A stretch of 62,862 bases of DNA from positions 1-62,862 of the forward strand of contig JAHFKS010000001.1 of assembly GCA_023245215.1 (NCBI GenBank), in the 5' to 3' direction. Shown here in pieces: positions 25,259-36,278 of this stretch (its first letter is position 1; each line of letters starts with the position of its first letter). A program made the translations under genes and the position numbers. The notes below the pieces were generated by a model. That model was not told where the DNA came from, ran no database searches, and saw only the letters and a list, made by a program, of their open reading frames with translations. The DNA is from Candidatus Microgenomates bacterium (lineage in GTDB: Bacteria; Patescibacteriota; Microgenomatia; UBA1406; GWC2-37-13).

Positions 25259-25879
25259 ATGGTAGAAGCGATGATTCCGCGGGTGGAAGGCGTTGGAAGG
25301 CAGTGGAACAGACGGCACGAAGTTCGTAAAGGATCTGTTATAAAAAAAGCTAAATCTCCAAGAATCCCCAGAGTAATACAAGCATTATCAGAAACAGCTG
25401 AACTAAGTTATTTTCCTTTAGCTGATTTACCAGCGAGAGATATTGACCCGTCAACTTTACCTCATGTGACTATGGAAGCCATGGCTAAAATATTGTCTGA
25501 TGCAGCCCTCGAAAAAAACAGTCTGGCGAATGCGCGCAAAAAAAAGACTTCCATTCCAACATCTCCTGTCAATAAAGCGGCCTACCGTCCGATAAAAAAA
25601 ATGGGGTCACCCCATGAGCAGCGGAAACAAGTAGAAATTAGGAAATTAAACGATATTATCCGGAGTGTTTTGGGAGGAGTATGGACATACGAGCAGCTTT
25701 CATTATTAATGTTCGGTTCGGGACATATTGTGACTGAGCCAAGATTTGCTCCGGAGGCTCCTATCCGCCCTCTTAGACCTTCAAAGTTAAATGCAGTCGG
25801 TAAAGGCGAAGCGAAAATAATCCGCCGCCTGCATAGAAAAAACAAACTGGCCCAGAAGGGAAGAGTTTATACTTACTGA
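25259..25879 (+). CDS. Hypothetical basic protein
   Basis: 206 aa ORF with TGGTAAAAT 6 nt upstream; no recognised motif. Confidence 0.6.
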   Translation: MVEAMIPRVEGVGRQWNRRHEVRKGSVIKKAKSPRIPRVIQALSETAELSYFPLADLPARDIDPSTLPHVTMEAMAKILSDAALEKNSLANARKKKTSIPTSPVNKAAYRPIKKMGSPHEQRKQVEIRKLNDIIRSVLGGVWTYEQLSLLMFGSGHIVTEPRFAPEAPIRPLRPSKLNAVGKGEAKIIRRLHRKNKLAQKGRVYTY

Positions 25880-25908
25880 AATTGTTCGGAATCTGTTACT
25901 ATGTTAGT

Positions 25909-27030
25909 GTGAGTTCCTCATCTTTTAGGAAACTATTTTCTTTCTTAATTTTTCTAAGCCTTTTGACAGGTCTCATGTTACTTTCTCCCAATGTTTTTGC
26001 CCAGGTTCCTTCTACACTTACTGTTAATGTTGAAATAGCGCCGTCATATGATACTGGAAAATTCAACATATCAATCGATGGAAATACAGTCGCAACTGAT
26101 TTGGGAAACGGGACAACAGGCACAGTTTCTGTTCCCCTTGGTTCGGTTGCTGTCAGTGAAACCGCCGGATCAAATACAGACCCTTCGAATTATTTAAAAA
26201 TCTATTCATGTTCTGACGGGTCTATAGGCAACGGGACTGACTTTACAATTAATATACTAGTTGGGCAAAGTTACACCTGTACTTTTTCAAATACCAGTCA
26301 GATTAATTTACCAAATACACCAACCCCGACAGAAACGCCGACCCCGGCGCCGACGCTGCCTGCGCCTACAGTGGCTTCAAATACACCGACTCCAACCTCA
26401 ACTCAATCCAGCTCAAGCAGTTCAAATAACTATCCGACTAATACTCCGACTCCAGCATCGTCCAATACGGCCTGTTATAGTACAAAGCCGGGAAGCGCTC
26501 CTTATATAACGTCGGCAGCCGCCGGGAAGAACAGCGTTACATTAATTTGGTCAGAGGCAGCTTCGCCGGTCAGCTACTATCTCGTCGCCTACGGTTTATC
26601 TTCGGGTTCATTGGCTTTTGGCAATCCCGATGTCGGCGGAGCAGGGACAACCAGTTACACAATCTCAGGATTATCAGGCGGAACAAAGTATTATTTCAGA
26701 GTCCGTGCGGGCAACGGCTGCGCCCCTGGAGATTATTCCAACGAAGTTTCCGCGACGCCTGGTGGAGTCCTTCTGACTACTCCGGCCGCCGGATTTACCC
26801 AGGACGTCCTCGGCGAGGCGACCTCTTCGGGTCTGCCGAAAGTAAACTTTTCCAGTCCTCCCCAGGTGCTGGGTGCAGGGACGACGACTAATAAACAGGA
26901 AGACAATTTTTTCCTCAAATATAAATGGTATCTGCTTTTTCTTCTGCTTATCCACGTAATAATTTACCTTTATTACACCAAAAAAATTCCTGATTTAAAA
27001 AATATATTCCTCAAAAAAGTGGTAAAATAG
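25909..27030 (+). CDS. Secreted FN3-domain surface protein with PT/S linker and C-terminal TM
   Basis: Signal peptide (VFA-Q), TISGLSGGTKYYFRVRAGNGCAPG..SNE; GTG start chosen because TGTTACTAT lies 6 nt upstream. Confidence 0.8.
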   Translation: MSSSSFRKLFSFLIFLSLLTGLMLLSPNVFAQVPSTLTVNVEIAPSYDTGKFNISIDGNTVATDLGNGTTGTVSVPLGSVAVSETAGSNTDPSNYLKIYSCSDGSIGNGTDFTINILVGQSYTCTFSNTSQINLPNTPTPTETPTPAPTLPAPTVASNTPTPTSTQSSSSSSNNYPTNTPTPASSNTACYSTKPGSAPYITSAAAGKNSVTLIWSEAASPVSYYLVAYGLSSGSLAFGNPDVGGAGTTSYTISGLSGGTKYYFRVRAGNGCAPGDYSNEVSATPGGVLLTTPAAGFTQDVLGEATSSGLPKVNFSSPPQVLGAGTTTNKQEDNFFLKYKWYLLFLLLIHVIIYLYYTKKIPDLKNIFLKKVVK

Positions 27031-27036
27031 AGCGTC

Positions 27037-27516
27037 ATGACAGAGCGCTTATATAATTACCTCACTGTCGGCCTGGCTTTATCGGCGGTCTCGCCGAAAA
27101 GAGAAGAAGTAATGAGATTTACAAACTTCGACAACCCGGTTCTTTGGAAAAAAAGACCGTATGTCCACGAGTTTGCTTTGGTGCGGGCTTCTTTTGGATT
27201 ACTGGAAAGGCATGGGGAACTGGATAAAAGTTTTTGCGAAAACATGGCTTTTGTTTTGGAATGGATTGGCCAACTCAATAAAAGCCAGTTAAAAGAAAGA
27301 AACGGAAGGGCAGAGCCTTTATTTTTAGACCTGGACAGCAAGGACCAAATAAACCAGCAGATAATTAATTTAAGAAGGCCGGATGCTGCTGAAAATCCTT
27401 TTACATCAATTACTTTGAGCGTATTTTTGGGCGGCTGCGCAAAAGCCTTAAGCGAATTCCAAATTATGGACAACGGGGGCGCTCCTTCCGGTCCAGCGCC
27501 GGAACAATTCGCCTGA
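27037..27516 (+). CDS. Hypothetical protein
   Basis: 159 aa ORF, TGGTAAAAT upstream. Confidence 0.65.
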   Translation: MTERLYNYLTVGLALSAVSPKREEVMRFTNFDNPVLWKKRPYVHEFALVRASFGLLERHGELDKSFCENMAFVLEWIGQLNKSQLKERNGRAEPLFLDLDSKDQINQQIINLRRPDAAENPFTSITLSVFLGGCAKALSEFQIMDNGGAPSGPAPEQFA

Positions 27517-27526
27517 ATAAAAATAT

Positions 27527-28198
27527 ATGGGAGTCGAAACAAACTATCTACCGGATAAATTGGGAATAAGAATGCTGGGTGGTATAACAACAGATAATCA
27601 TATTCTATTGCCGACTTTGAAACCGTCGGAATTTTTTGGAGCCTTTTGGCATGAATACGGCCACCCGATTGGAAAAGCGCTTTCATTTTTGCAGGGTCAG
27701 GTTTTGACCCCGGATGAAGTAATGGCTACGGCTATTCCACTCAGCCTACCAACCAGGACAAAGTTAATGTACGATCTGATGTTTCATGATAAGCCCAAAG
27801 CCGGTTTAAATGAAGCACTCGTTCCAACAGCGATGAAAGTTTTGAAAGTCTTTACCAAGGGCAACTTTGATTTTTCAAAATATATTCTTGAGCTGGATTA
27901 TCCTTATGGTGAACTGGTAAAAAGAGTCCAGAGAGATCCTAACAATGTGACTGTTACGACCGATGAGCTGGGGGAATTGAAGGGAATTGCCAGTAAAGAA
28001 GGTAGGAAGACAGAATTATCGCCGATTGCTGTTGAAGCCGGGTGCAACAAGATATTGGCAAACAGCATAAGTTCCTTATTAACCTATAAGTTTGAACGGG
28101 TGGATCATGATAGTTCGCACGCCAAAGCCTGGACAGTCGTCCATCGGGCGTACTCGCAAAAAGGCTACATAATCCCTTCGGAAAAAGATCTCACTTAG
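27527..28198 (+). CDS. Hypothetical protein with HExxH (HEYGH) motif, possible zinc metallopeptidase
   Basis: FFGAFWHEYGHP; downstream Glu in AVEAG. Confidence 0.5.
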   Translation: MGVETNYLPDKLGIRMLGGITTDNHILLPTLKPSEFFGAFWHEYGHPIGKALSFLQGQVLTPDEVMATAIPLSLPTRTKLMYDLMFHDKPKAGLNEALVPTAMKVLKVFTKGNFDFSKYILELDYPYGELVKRVQRDPNNVTVTTDELGELKGIASKEGRKTELSPIAVEAGCNKILANSISSLLTYKFERVDHDSSHAKAWTVVHRAYSQKGYIIPSEKDLT

Positions 28199-28221
28199 TT
28201 CGATAATATTCCATTTTCCTA

Positions 28222-28252
28222 ACCCGCCTCCACTCCTAACCTCCAACTTCTA
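28222..28252. repeat. Degenerate C-rich heptamer array
   Basis: ...ACTCCTA ACCTCCA ACTTCTA in an intergenic gap. Confidence 0.35.
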
Positions 28253-28280
28253 TGGATAAAAGTGCTAAAATAACGTTAAC

Positions 28281-28781
28281 ATGTTGCCAGAACAGCTGCA
28301 TCCAAGACACTTTGCTCCTCTTCACGAGCTTTTTGACTTTGCCAGAAACGCCCTCGTCGAAAACCCAAACATGTATGGCATCAAATTGAAAAACCATAAC
28401 CAGGAATATTTTGCCGGCTTGAAGGAAAGGATTGCCAGGGGAAAAAGGTCGGTGAGGAGATTTGACAAGGCTTTGAAGCTTCTGCAGGAAGCAGTAGTCG
28501 ATCATAACTTTGAAGAAGTCAGCAAAGTTTCTTATCCGGAAGCCAATCGCGAGGTCAGACAGATTCTCCATCTGCTTACCTGGGGCTACCTGCGTCAGAA
28601 TTTAGATAATAAGGGTTTGGATATCAATATGATTATTGAGAGCAATAAAAAACAGCTTTCGTCTCTGGCCCAAAATCTTGGGCGGCCGGTGGAAAGAATA
28701 ACCGTCGCTGAACTGGCCCAGGCTGTCATGAGGGGCGACTTCAATCCCTCCTTTCTCTCCGTCGCCACCCCGCTCCCGTAA
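28281..28781 (+). CDS. Hypothetical helical protein
   Basis: 166 aa ORF, TGCTAAAAT upstream. Confidence 0.65.
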   Translation: MLPEQLHPRHFAPLHELFDFARNALVENPNMYGIKLKNHNQEYFAGLKERIARGKRSVRRFDKALKLLQEAVVDHNFEEVSKVSYPEANREVRQILHLLTWGYLRQNLDNKGLDINMIIESNKKQLSSLAQNLGRPVERITVAELAQAVMRGDFNPSFLSVATPLP

Positions 28782-29337: not shown

Positions 29338-29781
29338 ATGACAAATAATAAATTGAAAGGAGACGAGGGAGAAAAAGAAGTCAGGGAGAAAGTTAAATGC
29401 CCAAATTGCGGAAATAGACTCGTTTCACTTCCTTCGGGTTTTCCAATGTTTGATGTTCAATGTTCCCGTTGCATGTTTCGAGCTCAAATAAAAACCGTAA
29501 ATAGTTCACCAAGAAATTCAATTTTTGGCGCCGGTTGGGATATATATGAAAAAGTATTAAAAGCAGGTTATTTATCTCCACCTTTAATATTAAATTTTAA
29601 ATGGAAGACTAAAGATGGTTTATGTCAAGAAATAAGATTTTATCCATTTATAGCAAGAAATAATGTTGAAAAATATAGACTTTCTTCTAAGGCTAAAAGA
29701 GCTAATTACAGAATGTTTAAATACGTTAGACTCGATCAAGCCAAGTACTATACGTTATTAAGTAGTTTTAAGCCTAAATAG
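29338..29781 (+). CDS. DpnI/Dam-replacing-like endonuclease catalytic domain
   Basis: GE..V...CPNCG...FDVQCSRC...QIK then GA; same Zn-finger and PD-(D/E)xK layout as the DpnI N-domain. Confidence 0.62.
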   Translation: MTNNKLKGDEGEKEVREKVKCPNCGNRLVSLPSGFPMFDVQCSRCMFRAQIKTVNSSPRNSIFGAGWDIYEKVLKAGYLSPPLILNFKWKTKDGLCQEIRFYPFIARNNVEKYRLSSKAKRANYRMFKYVRLDQAKYYTLLSSFKPK

Positions 29782-30815: not shown

Positions 30816-30858
30816 CGGCTTGACAAATGCTTCTTACGATTATAGACTATTCTCCAAC

Positions 30859-31680
30859 ATGCCTTTTAATCCTGGAGAAATGCTGAGAAAGTTTCGCGGA
30901 GCACTTTCATTAAAAAAAGAAATTCCCACTTTCGGAATAAAAGATATCGAACCGAGAGATGGTATGAACAGACTTCGCATAAGACTTGCTAACACCAATT
31001 TTTATCTTCCGATGGTCCACCTCAATTTTCCCGGAGTCGTAGAAAAAGCCCTCGGCTGGTTTGACCCGAATCCGCTAGTAAATGAAGCGCTTGACAGAGC
31101 GGCTACTGAAACGATGTATCAAATGTTAAAAAAAATGAAACCCAAAGTAGTCGTCATGACTAACTCGACCAAGTCAGAGAATTTTATAAAAGAAGCCTAT
31201 AAAAGATTGCCCCCGGGAACGCGTTTAGTTATCCTGCCGAGCGGCGATAAAAACGCCAAAGTCGCTGAACGTTCTACAGACATGAAGTTAGTCCATTTTG
31301 TTCCTGTCACCGGGACGGAAAAAGACATGGGCTATCCGAAACAAATTGAAGGTGAAAAAGAATATCTAAGTCTAGAGCAGTTGAAAGAACTCTGTCCGGA
31401 CGGAGAAGGGCTTGTCATCGCCGACGACGTCTATACCACCGGAGCGACTATCACGGCAATGGAGCAGGTGTTGGGATTGAATGAAAAAAGCAAACACCAG
31501 ATAGCTGTCATTGCCAACGAAAAAGAATTCAACGGCGAATATGTTCCAAAAAGGACGCCAAAAAATCTTCATGCGGCTTTCATCCTGACAGAATTTGTCG
31601 ACCTCGACAAGCTTGGAATTGACCGGAAGAAACTATTCTTCTACGACAAACCAAATATACCTGCGGCAATAGTGGAGTAA
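30859..31680 (+). CDS. Type I phosphoribosyltransferase (purine PRT-like)
   Basis: PRPP-binding motif LVIADDVYTTGAT; start moved to ATG 30859. Confidence 0.78.
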   Translation: MPFNPGEMLRKFRGALSLKKEIPTFGIKDIEPRDGMNRLRIRLANTNFYLPMVHLNFPGVVEKALGWFDPNPLVNEALDRAATETMYQMLKKMKPKVVVMTNSTKSENFIKEAYKRLPPGTRLVILPSGDKNAKVAERSTDMKLVHFVPVTGTEKDMGYPKQIEGEKEYLSLEQLKELCPDGEGLVIADDVYTTGATITAMEQVLGLNEKSKHQIAVIANEKEFNGEYVPKRTPKNLHAAFILTEFVDLDKLGIDRKKLFFYDKPNIPAAIVE

Positions 31681-31683
31681 TAA

Positions 31684-32781
31684 TTATTGATTTCCCTTCA
31701 TTGAAAAATCAGGAAGCTTTTGTGGAAGTTTTGTGTTAAACCGGCGGGCAAATTCTAATATGTGATCCCGGTGAAACGGACCCTCTTTGAGTGCAGCGGC
31801 AAAGACGGCGTCGTGGTCAATCAGCAAACTTTGCTCTCCTCCAACCAAATCAGTGCCAAGACCGAAGGCAACATAATTAAATTCCTTTTCCTCTTTAAAC
31901 CTCTGTCTCATAGTTGCCAGCTCGGAAGTGATGCCCATATCAAATAACATTGAAAGCTTGTCGATTCCGCCTTCACCATAAACTTTATTAACTAAATGCT
32001 GCAGGTTTCCTGTTTTTACCCGGTCAAAGCCGGCATCAAGCAGGGCGACTTCGTAAAAGCTCTGGTATTCGCTGGTGCCGGGAGTGCCGATTGCAATAGC
32101 AGGAAAGACGCGGTCATAACCAACTTCTTTGGCATAATCAAGAAAAGCTTTGGCAACTTCCGGGTTGCTCGAACGTCCGGCTTTTGCCTGAAAATGGTTT
32201 CCTTCCTTATCATCAAGATGCGACCTTGGGCCGTGGCCGGGATGGATGATATTTGTCAGCTCGGTATCGTCTAAGATAAGCCCTAAGTCTCCTGATTTCA
32301 AAGGGTGGTCCTCGCGGACGCCTGTCACATAAGTCAAAACAATTAAAGGATCGACTCCGTCCTTGGTTCTTTGTCTTCTGACCAGTTCTTTAATGACGTT
32401 GAGTTGATGGGATACGATCATCGGCCCCATTTCAACTCCAGCCCATTCATTTGGGTGGGCGCGGCCGTTAAAAAAAAGCATTCCATCGTTGTATGAAACA
32501 GTGCCTTCGTGGCCTTTGATTTCCGGCGGGACAAAACCGTAAAAATTCCCTTTACCGTAGTCGCCGATCTTTTCAGTTTCATCGGGAGGAGTCAAGCCCA
32601 TCGTGCAAAGATTGTATAAAAGAGGGAGGGACATATTCCTTTTAAGAAAGTATTTTTCAATGGCATCGGCATCCCTTATTATTGAAGCGGTTTCTTTTTT
32701 TTGCTGATTCATCCTTTCGCGGACTTTGTAATGGATGTCGTCCCTGTCGAATCGTCTTCTTAGCGCGTCATATACACTCAT
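31684..32781 (-). CDS. Divergent purine nucleoside phosphorylase/MTAP-family protein
   Basis: GHEG, NGRAHPNE, GDLGLILDD, EYQSFYE, DMGITSE, GLGTD occur in the order of trimeric PNP motifs. Confidence 0.65.
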   Translation of the reverse strand: MSVYDALRRRFDRDDIHYKVRERMNQQKKETASIIRDADAIEKYFLKRNMSLPLLYNLCTMGLTPPDETEKIGDYGKGNFYGFVPPEIKGHEGTVSYNDGMLFFNGRAHPNEWAGVEMGPMIVSHQLNVIKELVRRQRTKDGVDPLIVLTYVTGVREDHPLKSGDLGLILDDTELTNIIHPGHGPRSHLDDKEGNHFQAKAGRSSNPEVAKAFLDYAKEVGYDRVFPAIAIGTPGTSEYQSFYEVALLDAGFDRVKTGNLQHLVNKVYGEGGIDKLSMLFDMGITSELATMRQRFKEEKEFNYVAFGLGTDLVGGEQSLLIDHDAVFAAALKEGPFHRDHILEFARRFNTKLPQKLPDFSMKGNQ

Positions 32782-32868
32782 AAGAATTTTAATAATAGTA
32801 TAGGCAATTAAATCGTTAAATCAAGCGGATTGAAATTTTGGGAAGAAAATTATAGAATAGGCTGTCTT

Positions 32869-33924
32869 ATGGCTGAAATCAAAAAAAGAACTAGACGGCC
32901 AGAAACAATCAGGATTCCGGAAGGAAGAAGTCCGGGATACAACAGATGGATTGAAAACGGGGCGAAACTCCTAAAAAAAGAACTTCCTTTTGAAGGGCCG
33001 GCAGATGTTTCAATTACAGTCGGATCAGGGCTCTCTTCAATCGTTGACTTCATGCAGCTGCAAAACGTCCGCCACATACCCTATGAAAATATCGGCCTGC
33101 CTATTGGTGTTAATCAGCGGCATAAAAAAGAAATCATTGCCGGTATAACACCCGAAGGAAAAAAAATAATTATCGTCAACGGCCGTACTCATGCTTATGA
33201 AATTCCGGAAAACGGAATTAAAACAAAAAGATGGGGACAGCTGGACAGAATGGAGCTGGCAACAGGGTACATCGCCATGCTTAATGAAATCGGCGTGGAA
33301 AACATGATACTGACCTGCGCCGCCGGCGGCATCAATCACCCGATGAATGACGGCGAAGAAAAACCATTTAAACAAGAAAACCTTCCTGTTATCAGCATGA
33401 TCGGAGCGGATTTAAACAGAGCTTATCCTAATCCGAATTTGGGCCACTATAAATCGAGGCGGGGAGATTTTTTCGGATTAAAAGACGCTGATAAAATCTT
33501 AATGTCGATGTTCGGACAGAGCATGGCTGATACAGGAGAAACAGGAGAGATCCCAAGCGTCTATTACATCACTAGTAAATCAACTCCCAACTTTGAAGAT
33601 AAAGGAGTAATTTATGACGCGGCTTTCAGCGGCGGCCAGGTAGTCGGAATGTCTTTTTCATATGAAAAAGAGTTTATCAGCGGCATGGATAATATCGGTA
33701 GGTTTATGGGAATCGCCGTTGTCACCAATCCCGTCGAACTGGTTTATGCAAATCCGTCTCCATTTAGGACAATGCCTTCTATCTCCATTAATGAAATAAG
33801 GCAGCACCGGGCCCAGGAATTTGAGCTGGCTTTCCACGCCACCGACGAGGAAGTCGGGAGGATAGGCAGGCTGGCAGTGGAAAGATTGGGAAAAGGCTTG
33901 ACACAGATGGTCAAATCCTTATAA
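32869..33924 (+). CDS. Purine nucleoside phosphorylase family protein
   Basis: TVGSGL, NGRTHAYE, LTCAAGGIN, PNFE, VVGMS..YE, VVTN; start moved to ATG 32869. Confidence 0.8.
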   Translation: MAEIKKRTRRPETIRIPEGRSPGYNRWIENGAKLLKKELPFEGPADVSITVGSGLSSIVDFMQLQNVRHIPYENIGLPIGVNQRHKKEIIAGITPEGKKIIIVNGRTHAYEIPENGIKTKRWGQLDRMELATGYIAMLNEIGVENMILTCAAGGINHPMNDGEEKPFKQENLPVISMIGADLNRAYPNPNLGHYKSRRGDFFGLKDADKILMSMFGQSMADTGETGEIPSVYYITSKSTPNFEDKGVIYDAAFSGGQVVGMSFSYEKEFISGMDNIGRFMGIAVVTNPVELVYANPSPFRTMPSISINEIRQHRAQEFELAFHATDEEVGRIGRLAVERLGKGLTQMVKSL

Positions 33925-34546: not shown

Positions 34547-35287
34547 ATGTCTAAAGATTCTGCAGAAAGTTTCAGGCTGAAAATCGCCGAGTATGCCTTT
34601 CGAAAACGGGCGGAAGACCTTGGTTTGCTATCAATCGCCCTGCAAGTTATGGCTTCAAATTTACAAGAAGACGAACTAAAACAGGGAGTCAAAGTTTACC
34701 GCCAGTTTGCCAATGAATACGACATGTCTGTCATGGAGATGAATGTTTTGGAACACACGTTTGCCTGTCTGGACATAACCGAAAGGGGTGATTTTATGTT
34801 AAATCCGGAATCATTCATTCCAAATTACCAGGTGTTAAGGCAGTTTGGAAAGGTTATGGAAAGATATACGGAAGATGAATTGATAGCAATGAACGAAGAA
34901 ATAAGTTACTCCGAAGAAGAATATAAAATGGTTATGCGTAGAGCAGATACCGAAGACAAATATTCTCCTAATGAGCTTTTGGTCATCGGCGTGTTGCCGG
35001 AAAGGGCGAGGAGTATAAAAAAAGTTTTAACCTCAATTTTAGGTTCGGCAGCAAGTAGGTCGACGACCGGAGTCTCAACTCCAAAAATGAAAACCGTTTA
35101 TTTTAAAGGCGAATTTAGAATTGCTTTGGACGGAGCCGTAGAGGAAACAATAATGAATCCAGGAATGCCGGAAGTATTTATAAATAAGTTCAAAATCCCA
35201 GGTACACAGGAAATGCTGACACGATCTTACCTGATGGCCCAAGCGTCTCTCCCAAAAAAGCGCACCCGCGGACTGTTAAAAAAATAA
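34547..35287 (+). CDS. Hypothetical protein
   Basis: 246 aa, TGATATAAT upstream. Confidence 0.7.
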   Translation: MSKDSAESFRLKIAEYAFRKRAEDLGLLSIALQVMASNLQEDELKQGVKVYRQFANEYDMSVMEMNVLEHTFACLDITERGDFMLNPESFIPNYQVLRQFGKVMERYTEDELIAMNEEISYSEEEYKMVMRRADTEDKYSPNELLVIGVLPERARSIKKVLTSILGSAASRSTTGVSTPKMKTVYFKGEFRIALDGAVEETIMNPGMPEVFINKFKIPGTQEMLTRSYLMAQASLPKKRTRGLLKK

Positions 35288-35312: not shown

Positions 35313-36278
35313 ATGTCTATAGAAATAACTGAAGTCGGACATAGGGATAGCCGTTTAAGAAAAGTCCAAAACAAGGTTGCTTTTATGGTCCCAGCACTTA
35401 TAAGTGCTTTTGATTATCTCGGTGCTTTTCCCAATACAAAAATTCATACTGCTGTGAGAAGCAAATCAGAAAGACTAAAAGCCGATGATGTTACTTTATC
35501 GCAACTTCAGATGACTGTTCATATATGTAAAATGATTGAGGAAAATAAGTTCTTTCCTAATTTTGGATTTGAATATGTACTTACAAGTTTTTTAAATGGC
35601 GCTGATGGAATAATTGCCCGTCGTCTGAATTCGGTAACTAAAGAGGGTGGAATTAAAGATGCCTCTGTAGATCGGCTAAGTGAAGTTATGATTGCCAGAC
35701 TTTTATCAAAAAAGTTAAATTTGCCTGAAGAAACAAGTCATCGATTGGAGGTTGCTTTCCAACTTTCAACTTTAACCAAGGCCGCTTGTGAAATGAGCGA
35801 TGTCAAAACGAGCGAGGGAGGTATCGGTAGTATGATTCAAAGAAGAATCGCCCTTTATTTTATTTTGCGCGATTTAATTACTCTTAATGCAATCCCGAAA
35901 TCTATGAAGCAATTAAGAGAAAATAAAGTTATCAAAATAAATCAACAGATAAATAAATTAATAGAAGACAGTTTTAACAGGGCAAAAGAAAGAATAAATC
36001 TTATTGCAGAAAATGTATCAGAAGTTAAAGCTCCAAAAAATAAGAATTCCTCAGGAGCCAGCGAAGCTATTAAGTATGCGGGTGTTGTATTAATAAATAA
36101 TCTTATTGGTTTAGATATAGTTACTGAACTAAATAATTTAGCCGAAGGGTCGGTTGTCTTTCCTACAGTACCAAACCTTATGATAAATCAGAGATACATT
36201 TTTGAATCATTAACAAATGCTAAAGGGTATATAGATGATGCGTTGGCAATATCTGGTTTGGCTAAAAAAAAGATTTGA
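35313..36278 (+). CDS. CDP-alcohol phosphotransferase-like protein
   Basis: NGADGIIARRLNSVTKEGGIKDASVDR matches DxxDGxxAR...GxxxDxxxD except that the first D is N. Confidence 0.68.
   Translation: MSIEITEVGHRDSRLRKVQNKVAFMVPALISAFDYLGAFPNTKIHTAVRSKSERLKADDVTLSQLQMTVHICKMIEENKFFPNFGFEYVLTSFLNGADGIIARRLNSVTKEGGIKDASVDRLSEVMIARLLSKKLNLPEETSHRLEVAFQLSTLTKAACEMSDVKTSEGGIGSMIQRRIALYFILRDLITLNAIPKSMKQLRENKVIKINQQINKLIEDSFNRAKERINLIAENVSEVKAPKNKNSSGASEAIKYAGVVLINNLIGLDIVTELNNLAEGSVVFPTVPNLMINQRYIFESLTNAKGYIDDALAISGLAKKKI

Follow-up and report, generated by a model that had tools for sequence, protein, structure and literature searches.

The window, a stretch of 62,862 nucleotides from a Candidatus Microgenomates bacterium, holds a phosphoribosyltransferase (PRTase) gene beside two genes for purine nucleoside phosphorylase (PNP)-like proteins, here called PNP-A and PNP-B. 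The source organism is a tiny groundwater bacterium. The question raised by this locus is whether two PNPs of opposite base preference and a PRTase form a conserved purine-scavenging module, a nucleotide-depleting defense system, or a chance assembly of ordinary salvage genes.

Organization of the Locus

The three open reading frames and the head-to-head arrangement of the two PNPs are as originally predicted (Table 1): 87 bp separate PNP-A from PNP-B, and PRTase and PNP-B lie tail to tail with 3 bp between them. The whole stretch lies inside one contig of run X1, a possible source of the stretch, and both junctions, PRTase/PNP-B and PNP-B/PNP-A, are spanned by contigs of another run, X2. Because their orientations differ, the genes do not make up one operon; each is its own transcription unit, and the chromosomal region around them is variable and also holds a DpnI-like nuclease gene. 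Sigma70-like sites number 11 across the region, which is not above chance (8.3 ± 2.8 in shuffled sequences).

Table 1. Coordinates of the features discussed, in positions of the window
Feature	Position	Strand	Remarks
Sigma70-like site, TTGACA-17-TAGACT, 10/12	30820-30848	+	10 nt upstream of PRTase ATG; consensus match only
PRTase, 273 aa	30859-31680	+	open reading frame
PNP-B, 365 aa; predicted trimeric-type PNP fold, Asp243-type, remodeled phosphate site	31684-32781	-	
PNP-B Asp311 (human Asn243 position)	31849-31851	-	Asp in 59/59 family members
PNP-B DMG motif (human G218-M219-S220)	31933-31941	-	Gly at S220
PNP-B Gln240 (human Glu201 position)	32062-32064	-	Gln in 44/59, Glu in 15/59 family members
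PNP-B CTMG loop (human C31-G32-S33-G34)	32596-32607	-	Thr at G32, Met at S33
Divergent intergenic region PNP-B/PNP-A, 87 bp	32782-32868		sigma70-like sites on both strands
Sigma70-like site, intergenic, 9/12	32824/32819	-	
Sigma70-like site, intergenic, 10/12	32830-32858	+	
PNP-A, 351 aa from ATG; putative divergent 6-oxopurine-type trimeric PNP	32869-33924	+	canonical phosphate-site residues
PNP-A Glu243 (human Glu201 position)	33595-33597	+	Glu in 23/24 family members; XapA E197 column
PNP-A Asn287 (human Asn243 position)	33727-33729	+	Asn in 24/24 family members; XapA N239 column

PNP-A as a Trimeric-Type PNP

PNP-A has the expected PNFE and VVTN motifs. Its modeled fold, its E201/N243 pair (human numbering is used for active-site positions throughout) and its phosphate-site residues identify it as a putative trimeric-type (NP-I) PNP. 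The AF2 model (pLDDT 85.8) finds trimeric PNPs as best Foldseek matches (E about 1e-19, TMt up to 0.85), and the equivalents of S33, H64, R84, H86, Y88, E89, M219, and S220 of human and calf PNP are all kept. It departs from the trimeric 6-oxopurine PNPs in having Asp at the H257 position and in its low profile scores: TIGR01697 matches with E = 2e-18 and 66.7 bits, under the curated cut-off of 197.1 bits, and TIGR01700 with 51 bits, under a cut-off of 293 bits. PNP-A is predicted to carry out phosphorolysis of inosine and guanosine.

Base-Specificity Residues of PNP-B

PNP-B lacks the 6-oxopurine pair E201/N243 and carries Q240/D311, within the EYQS and LGTD motifs first picked out by eye. 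Three observations uphold that register and the assignment of Q/D to the E201/N243 positions. The profile of the 59-sequence PNP-B family aligns with the human E201Q/N243D double mutant (hDM, PDB 3GB9), pairing 'pefqsv' with 'psfqtv' and 'laTDlV' with 'litdkv'. An L-INS-i alignment of 48 rows places Q240/D311 of PNP-B and E243/N287 of PNP-A in the columns of E197/N239 of Escherichia coli XapA. Finally, some relatives of PNP-B have Glu in the position-201 column, for example in PEFE. Within the family, Gln at 201 is variable (44/59), and Asp at 243 is fixed (59/59).

The opposite base preference that was predicted from these residues is supported by analogy with mutants. Changing Asn to Asp shifts the specificity of K. 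lactis and human PNP to adenosine (PMC5074518, PMC6128611, PMC2799393), and the hDM is in use as an adenosine-analogue enzyme (PMC2799393). PNP-B shares with the hDM the same two substitutions, aligned residue for residue, but it occurs in nature, has a structure-based identity of about 20%, and lacks S33, S220, and Y88.

One could instead suppose a broad PNP-B, active on 6-amino and 6-oxopurines alike, so that PNP-A and PNP-B overlap and their adjacency is accidental. K. lactis N256D retains cleavage of inosine, xanthosine, and guanosine (PMC5074518); Glu201 is kept in 15/59 members, including P0011, which is 67-68% identical to the PNP-B of the window; and PNP-B is the sole trimeric-type PNP detected in 6/9 class-level genomes. 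However, the copy of the window has Gln, the corresponding human double mutant serves as an adenosine-analogue enzyme, and all four genomes of the order with PNP-B also have an Asn-type enzyme, which makes this reading decidedly unlikely.

Fold and Phosphate Site of PNP-B

PNP-B has no match in Pfam or, at E ≤ 0.1, in NCBIfam. Its AF2 model (pLDDT 89.7) finds trimeric PNPs as top Foldseek matches (E about 1e-14). When compared with PNP and MTAP structures, as originally suggested, both AlphaFold models are closest to trimeric PNPs; for PNP-B, VIA gives Z = 23.7 to 4uc0 (rmsd 2.3 over 240 residues) and 19.4 to MTAP. The homotrimer prediction for PNP-B scores 0.86, against 0.00 for the best control, with at least 73% contact agreement between runs and pLDDT of at least 84; the mark is reached by 20/30 solved pairs and 1/23 single chains, and this pass may reflect likeness to solved trimers. 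The predicted interface sets residues 171-204 against 111-118 and 234-247, and in the model these segments match the calf PNP interface, given as 141-168 against 87-91 and 196-205 (PMC9916683).

The altered phosphate-site motifs CTMG and DMG are also as first described. Thr occupies the G32 position in 51/59 family members, and Ser or Thr the S33 position in only 11/59; in the second motif Met is invariant (59/59), and the S220 position holds Gly in 48/59 and Ser in 8/59. The canonical phosphate site (S33, H64, R84, H86, S220) is incomplete in PNP-B, which keeps R84, H86, and H64 and has Met for S33 and Gly for S220. The equivalents of Y88 and N115 are changed as well, the latter to Tyr or Phe in 57/59 members. 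PNP-B is most likely an active phosphorylase, because the equivalents of R84, H86, E89, H64, F159, M219, and H257 are kept, and Thr one residue upstream probably substitutes for S33.

These changes are also what a changed chemistry might look like: PNP-B could be a phosphate-independent nucleosidase, or take a 5'-phosphorylated or modified adenine substrate through a remodeled anion site. The family would then be an unannotated Patescibacteria family that joins, on a trimeric scaffold, a natural E201Q/N243D switch to a rebuilt phosphate site and cleaves adenosine or adenine nucleotides by hydrolysis or by new anion binding. The losses at S33, S220, and N115 are consistent with such a change, as are the family-specific basic residues K200 (50/59) and R203 (54/59) beside the F159 equivalent, a conserved KxxxRRxR helix, long insertions, and a GTPG loop peculiar to the family. 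Yet R84 and H86 are invariant (59/59), H64 and E89 are each found in 53/59 members, and seven deep members keep G-T-G. H257 (58/59) and the acidic residue at position 199 (54/59), which we take to act at the 5'-OH, suit a free 5'-OH over a 5'-phosphate or methylthio group, and the fold lies nearer to PNP, with MTAN and AMP nucleosidase at a Z of about 16. We regard a changed chemistry as unlikely and predict that PNP-B phosphorolyzes adenosine or deoxyadenosine, with release of adenine.

Relation to Known Enzymes

PNP-A and PNP-B share 39/286 aligned positions. Compared directly, they give no significant BLAST match and an hhalign probability of 3.3%. A quick tree splits them (SH-aLRT 99), and an AU test does not reject an A+B clade (p = 0.53). 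"Paralogue", as they had been called, is a loose term for this relation. Both share the fold of human and calf PNP and of XapA, but they are 60-90 residues longer than XapA and only about 21-23% identical to it. PNP-B resembles human and calf PNP in its predicted trimer interface and in the kept residues given above; it differs from trimeric 6-oxopurine PNPs in lacking a profile match, in Q201/D243, and in its altered phosphate site.

The best sequence-profile match of the PNP-B family is the Bacteroides fragilis PNP (PDB 8SWT, E = 4e-16), likewise a natural trimeric-type enzyme in which position 243 is Asp (VVTD); unlike PNP-B of the window, it has Glu201 and the canonical G-T-G loop. MTAP belongs to the same superfamily, has Asp at the N7 position, and releases adenine. 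PNP-B differs from it by a PNP-type GRxH motif and H257 and by lacking the second Asp found in the TDYD motif of MTAP, and it has no NCBIfam match to MTAP profiles (TIGR01694/PRK08564-type) at E ≤ 0.1.

Complementary PNP pairs are already known. In Thermus thermophilus, one of the two enzymes PNP I and PNP II is of the hexameric type, unlike PNP-A and PNP-B, which are both of the trimeric type; the match of PNP-B to Thermus 6TK9 is remote (E = 3e-4). PNP I and PNP II are a natural pair in one genome, specific for 6-oxopurines versus 6-aminopurines only (PMC11430614), with locus tags far apart (PMC8073115). The new part is the PNP-B family and its altered phosphate site.

Distribution of the PNP-B Family

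The PNP-B family is found in Patescibacteria-class genomes and is overlooked by Pfam and NCBIfam. Pfam matches neither the PNP-B of the window nor 25 of the 27 relatives scanned, the two that match being outlying conventional PNPs. The distribution is patchy (4/223 genomes). In the four PNP-B genomes of the order, the Asn-type enzyme is PNP-A in G000, the genome of the window, and in G120, and a canonical one in G151 and G211. A canonical Asn-type PNP is not detected in 6/9 further class-level genomes with PNP-B, so that PNP-B is often without a complementary partner. A phage origin finds no support: PNP-B has no match in viral contigs or, by tblastn, among 50,697 phage records (both searched with PNP-B only). 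In the ESM Atlas it finds only low-score peptidase-like clusters, with a poor model, which is uninformative. Literature listings on PNPs and nucleotide salvage in Patescibacteria, CPR, and Roizmanbacteria, drawn from a collection with few subscription papers, name no work on the family.

The PRTase and the Gene Neighborhoods

The PRTase has a PRPP motif, VIADDVYTTGAT, and the fold of type I PRTases. It is likely, by its sequence, a divergent type I PRTase acting on adenine. Pfam PF00156 matches below its cut-off (E = 4e-4); the NCBIfam adenine PRT model PRK07322 weakly matches 23/23 members of the PRTase family (best E = 1.6e-5, below cut-off). The best curated matches are adenine PRT models, with 14-18 bits against cut-offs of 125-186. 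The best PDB profile matches are to PyrR. In the ESM Atlas, the nearest clusters by features and structure are automatically named adenine PRT, which is a lead only. The PRTase thus has in common with adenine PRT-like type I PRTases (PRK07322, PRK02304) the PRPP-binding motif and the nearest Atlas clusters, but it is about 90 residues longer and its matches are far below cut-off.

A conserved operon is ruled out by gene orientation and by the neighborhoods of relatives. Elsewhere, PNP-A is near PNP-B in 0/24 loci and the PRTase adjacent in 1/24 (10 of the 24 loci span less than 5.4 kb), and PNP-B or the PRTase accompanies PNP-A in 0/8. The trio is hence a local assembly and no conserved cassette, contrary to the complete three-gene module first proposed. 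Of the proposal that the PNP pair feeds the PRTase, a weaker link between the PRTase and an Asp-type enzyme remains. The three other genomes of the order with a PRTase of this type all carry an Asp-type enzyme: in G151 this is PNP-B, adjacent to the PRTase; G063 has an MTAP-like gene at a distance of 3.3 kb, and G148 has one on a separate contig. A PRTase homolog is absent from the two other PNP-B genomes of the order, G120 (84% complete) and G211. Of the nine further PNP-B genomes in the class, G571 alone carries a clear homolog, and G343 and G368 have weak ones. Distant homologs, in 8/400 genomes of the class, have no PNP in flanks of about 1.5 kb inspected by eye. Co-occurrence probabilities (0.04 for PNP-B with the PRTase, 0.08 for PNP-B with PNP-A) take no account of relatedness and are not used as tests. 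PNP-B and the PRTase are at most a loosely linked pair.

The neighborhoods also bear on the suggestion that the trio depletes nucleotides as an anti-phage system. Its patchy distribution and its variable region with a DpnI-like nuclease would suit defense, as would the Panacea-antitoxin, Schlafen-helicase, and MazG-like genes that adjoin PNP-B at locus L005, and PNP-domain ATP nucleosidases are known defense effectors (bioRxiv 10.1101/2023.01.24.525353). The same preprint, however, sets defensive PNPs in a clade distinct from the XapA-like enzymes of housekeeping, and PNP-A and PNP-B match XapA/human-type PNPs best. Cap17/Detocs ATP nucleosidases have the PNP_UDP_1 superfamily and adenine release in common with this locus, but they are fused to or encoded with sensors, whereas PNP-A and PNP-B stand alone, without a sensor, fused domain, or conserved cassette. 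None of the three proteins has a PADLOC match at E ≤ 0.01. Other loci have housekeeping neighbors: purB-purA-guaB/C lies directly upstream of PNP-B on the same strand in L014, ndk adjoins or is near PNP-B in G343, G297, G329, and G368 (one family; Pfam-checked only in L013), and pdp is directly 3' of PNP-A in G025. Defense is therefore highly improbable.

Probable Purine Salvage and Implications

The probable reading of the locus is ordinary purine salvage by three separately oriented genes, in which PNP-A would act on inosine and guanosine, PNP-B on adenosine, and the PRTase would convert adenine to AMP. Folds, active-site residues, family conservation, and neighborhoods are observed; substrates and direction are inferred. 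Adenine derived from PNP-B would likely be the substrate of the PRTase, and the hypoxanthine and guanine from PNP-A would pass to a gpt-like PRTase encoded elsewhere in the genome (G000:C29). G000 (91% complete) lacks canonical PNP and MTAP-like genes, an APRT over cut-off, and an adenosine deaminase. Its genes include two for PRPP synthases and one of the phosphomutase family; a deoB-type phosphopentomutase was not found. Since purA, purB, and guaB/C are present, adenine salvage is not the sole route to AMP.

The three-gene cluster per se has little general importance. For PNP specificity, the PNP-B family amounts to an experiment run by nature: Asp243 is constant, close relatives alternate between Gln and Glu at position 201, and two serines of the phosphate site have been lost, so that textbook specificity rules are directly testable on natural sequences. 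A natural E201Q/N243D counterpart could also serve adenosine-analogue production or activation. Should the less likely changed chemistry hold, PNP-B and an APRT-like enzyme would give these parasites a dedicated means of drawing adenine from the nucleosides or nucleotides of their hosts. Patescibacteria rely on salvage, and because standard annotation misses PNP-B, their metabolic reconstructions have a gap in adenosine use.

Predicted Folds and Active Sites of the Two Putative Phosphorylases

The two predicted purine nucleoside phosphorylases (PNPs) of the window carry opposite residues at the positions of E201 and N243 of human PNP, whose numbering is used below for family comparisons. The B profile (59 rows: 34 close matches, 23 of 43 further representatives, selected as nearly full-length members, and 2 locus proteins) aligns with human E201Q/N243D (3GB9, E = 1.2e-9), placing 'pefqsv' on 'psfqtv' and 'laTDlV' on 'litdkv', and wild-type human PNP sequences match it at E = 6e-8 to 2e-7. 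In a 48-row alignment, Q240/D311 of PNP-B and E243/N287 of PNP-A occupy the columns of E197/N239 of Escherichia coli XapA. The register agrees in both comparisons, so that the opposite specificity residues of the original prediction are borne out at the level of sequence.

Within the B family, position 243 is always Asp (59/59), and at position 201, 44 members have Gln and 15 have Glu. The equivalents of R84, H86, G118, and M219 are invariant (59/59), and those of H257 (58/59), F159 (55/59), H64 (53/59), and E89 (53/59) are largely kept. At the S33 position, Ser or Thr occurs in 11/59, with a Thr one position earlier in 51/59, and the S220 position holds Gly in 48/59. The A family has E201 (23/24), N243 (24/24), and canonical phosphate-site residues; at position 257 it has Asp in 15 members and His in 9. 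The phosphate ligands are S33 and S220, and H257 contacts the 5′-OH. PMC9916683 names these three as active-site residues only. Seven B-family proteins (P0024, P0086, P0088, P0094, P0099, P0112, and P0120) share a C-terminal extension of ~150–200 aa with no Pfam match.

PNP-A matches TIGR01697 below the cut-off (E = 2e-18), and its named homologues come from Candidatus Roizmanbacteria/Patescibacteria, so that the host probably falls in this group. PNP-B has no match in Pfam or NCBIfam, and a search of PDB sequences gave only two unrelated ones (E about 0.5). AlphaFold models built from 34 B and 24 A homologues (counts that include the window proteins) reach pLDDT 89.7 for B and 85.8 for A, and trimeric PNPs are the top structural matches of both. 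In an exhaustive structural search, B aligns with a trimeric PNP at Z = 23.7 (rmsd 2.3, 240 aligned), with MTAP at Z = 19.4, and with MTAN and AMP nucleosidase at about 16. A homotrimer of B (residues 14–346) is predicted with a score of 0.86 (best control, 0.00), which may reflect likeness to solved trimers; the mark is reached by 20/30 solved pairs and 1/23 single chains, and the runs have at least 73% contact agreement and pLDDT of at least 84. The predicted interface (171–204 against 111–118 and 234–247) matches the one described for calf PNP (141–168 against 87–91 and 196–205; PMC9916683).

A and B share fewer identical aligned positions (39/286) than either shares with XapA (60/265 and 55/258). 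A quick tree places A with canonical PNPs, apart from B, but an A+B clade is compatible with the AU test (p = 0.53). A recent duplication is rejected as the origin of the pair; an ancient duplication may lie behind it.

In human PNP, the Asn-to-Asp change raises adenosine kcat 5000-fold (PMC6128611, PMC5074518); in that of K. lactis it reverses preference, although 6-oxopurine activity is kept (PMC5074518), and human E201Q/N243D cleaves adenosine-based prodrugs (PMC2799393). By analogy, specificity for 6-oxopurines is predicted for A and a preference for adenine for B. Complementary pairs of this sort are known in nature: Thermus thermophilus PNP I acts on 6-oxopurines only and PNP II on 6-aminopurines only (PMC11430614). 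The B. fragilis PNP (8SWT) is, like B, a natural trimeric-type sequence with Asp at position 243.

The Locus and Its Conservation

The window is contig C20 of a source genome (G000) of 819 kb, 91% complete. A single contig of sequencing run X1, the possible origin of this DNA, covers the arrangement, and contigs of run X2 (same study) bridge both junctions. The 273-aa type I phosphoribosyltransferase (PRTase) and B are convergent and B and A divergent, which therefore makes three transcription units. Of the σ70-like sites within the trio, the two that score best by consensus match each precede a start codon by 10 nt, one that of the PRTase and the other that of PNP-A; across the region, the total of such sites shows no excess over chance. 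By names read from translations, uvrD and an acetyltransferase flank the trio on one side and a vanW-like gene on the other. Around it lie lineage-specific ORFs and a DpnI-like nuclease. Related loci contain different subsets of the surrounding genes, and the region is therefore variable; the GC of the trio (0.44–0.46) is similar to that of flanking core genes. Homologues of three of the lineage-specific ORFs (206, 159, and 246 aa) occur in the A-containing variable region of genome G025.

Features of the window, and of other loci (L), genomes (G), and contigs (C)
Feature	Position	Strand	Remarks
Lineage-specific ORFs	25259-28781		No Pfam match
DpnI-like nuclease	29338-29781	+	Short, methyl-directed; GC low (0.32); no obvious C-terminal domain
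PRTase	30859-31680	+	Converges with PNP-B, 3-bp gap
PNP-B	31684-32781	-	Diverges from PNP-A across 87 bp
PNP-A	32869-33924	+	Diverges from PNP-B across 87 bp
Lineage-specific ORFs	34547-35287		No Pfam match
CDP-alcohol phosphatidyltransferase	35313-36278	+	Divergent, weakly archaetidylinositol-phosphate-synthase-like; homologues also near PNP-A in G120 and G210
A-family paralogue	L050:6549-7601	-	Asp at 243, no H86
A-family paralogue	L059:7151-8197	+	Asp at 243, no H86
Third Asn-type PNP	L044:1435-2439
Third Asn-type PNP	L089:5137-6201
Third Asn-type PNP	L088:2695-3447
MTAP-like	L055:3548-4546		TIGR01694 E = 4e-28, below cut-off
MTAP-like	L087:5404-6324
MTAP-like	L090:4612-5610
MTAP-like	L091:4313-5224
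Gpt-like PRTase	G000:C29, L062:1471-2004
Distant PRTase homologue	L112:1333-2094		G343; divergently oriented beside purA-like gene
Orotate-PRTase-like genes	G000:C24:43600-45600 (L063)		Three in tandem; 204-aa copy with degenerate PRPP motif (VVDEEVRDPADT)
Nucleoside-diphosphate-kinase-like genes	G000:C15:11593-12710		Two in tandem, each longer than 141-aa query
AMP-phosphorylase-like protein	G000:C1 (L070:1246-2514)		423 aa, without first ~80 profile positions

Among 223 genomes of the order, 4 have B, 8 have strong A-family matches, and 4 have strong matches to the PRTase, G000 being counted each time; the three occur together in G000 alone. In a class sample of 401 genomes, B occurs in 11. 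The three-gene cluster is not conserved: at 24 other distinct B loci (sets of 16 and 8, duplicates counted once, 10 shorter than 5.4 kb), A is found in none and the PRTase in one, and neither B nor the PRTase is found at 8 other A loci. In G151, the PRTase immediately precedes B on the same strand, and G120 has A and B on separate contigs. Judging by equal contig sizes, B may be on one contig with the PRTase in two more cases (876,096 bp and 43,248 bp) and with A in one (8,809 bp). A parallel is seen in G025, where ~6 kb lies between two A-family genes of opposite strand: position 243 is Asn in one and Asp in the other, and the Asp copy, which is one of the paralogues at L050 and L059, has no H86 either; this is an independent pair inside one family. 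The order also has a third family of elongated, divergent Asn-type PNPs (including P0123), matching TIGR01697 at E about 1e-32 (G001, G002, G014, G016, and G035) or 8e-39 (G061), and a divergent, elongated MTAP-like family is present in two genomes that also have the PRTase, G063 and G148.

Probable Role in Purine Salvage, and the Defence Alternative

The original prediction offered a salvage module or a nucleotide-depleting defence system. The one point in favor of defence is that these genes reside in a variable region, close to restriction-like or toxin–antitoxin-like genes. Against it, no PADLOC profile matched the PRTase, A, or B, and a preprint (bioRxiv 10.1101/2023.01.24.525353) places the PNP domains of defence systems in a clade of their own, separate from XapA-like enzymes. 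B has no match in phage and viral collections.

We put forward, with moderate confidence, that these separately oriented genes most likely serve purine salvage. B lies downstream of purB-purA-guaB/C on the same strand in one locus (L014), and next to ndk or in its vicinity in four genomes, all of one family; in G025, a pyrimidine-nucleoside phosphorylase gene directly follows A. In G011, G065, and G067, a canonical PNP is flanked by a large membrane-protein gene and a gpt-like PRTase; the same two genes are present in G000, where no PNP separates them. The rest of this 91% complete genome yielded neither a canonical PNP nor an MTAP-like gene, which leaves A as the only Asn-type candidate. An APRT above cut-off and an adenosine deaminase were likewise not found in it; it carries the gpt-like PRTase, two PRPP synthases, an AMP-phosphorylase-like enzyme, and purA/purB/guaB-C. 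The window PRTase leans toward an adenine PRT: all 23 family members match PRK07322 weakly and ESM Atlas neighbours are automatically named APRT, although its PDB profile matches are PyrR. An Asp-type nucleoside enzyme is present in all three other PRTase genomes of the order. Strict complementarity is argued against by the nine further B genomes of the class, six of which have no detected canonical Asn-type PNP and most of which lack the PRTase.

The result of lasting value is the B family itself, an unannotated and natural Q201/D243 trimeric-type PNP with a remodelled phosphate site.
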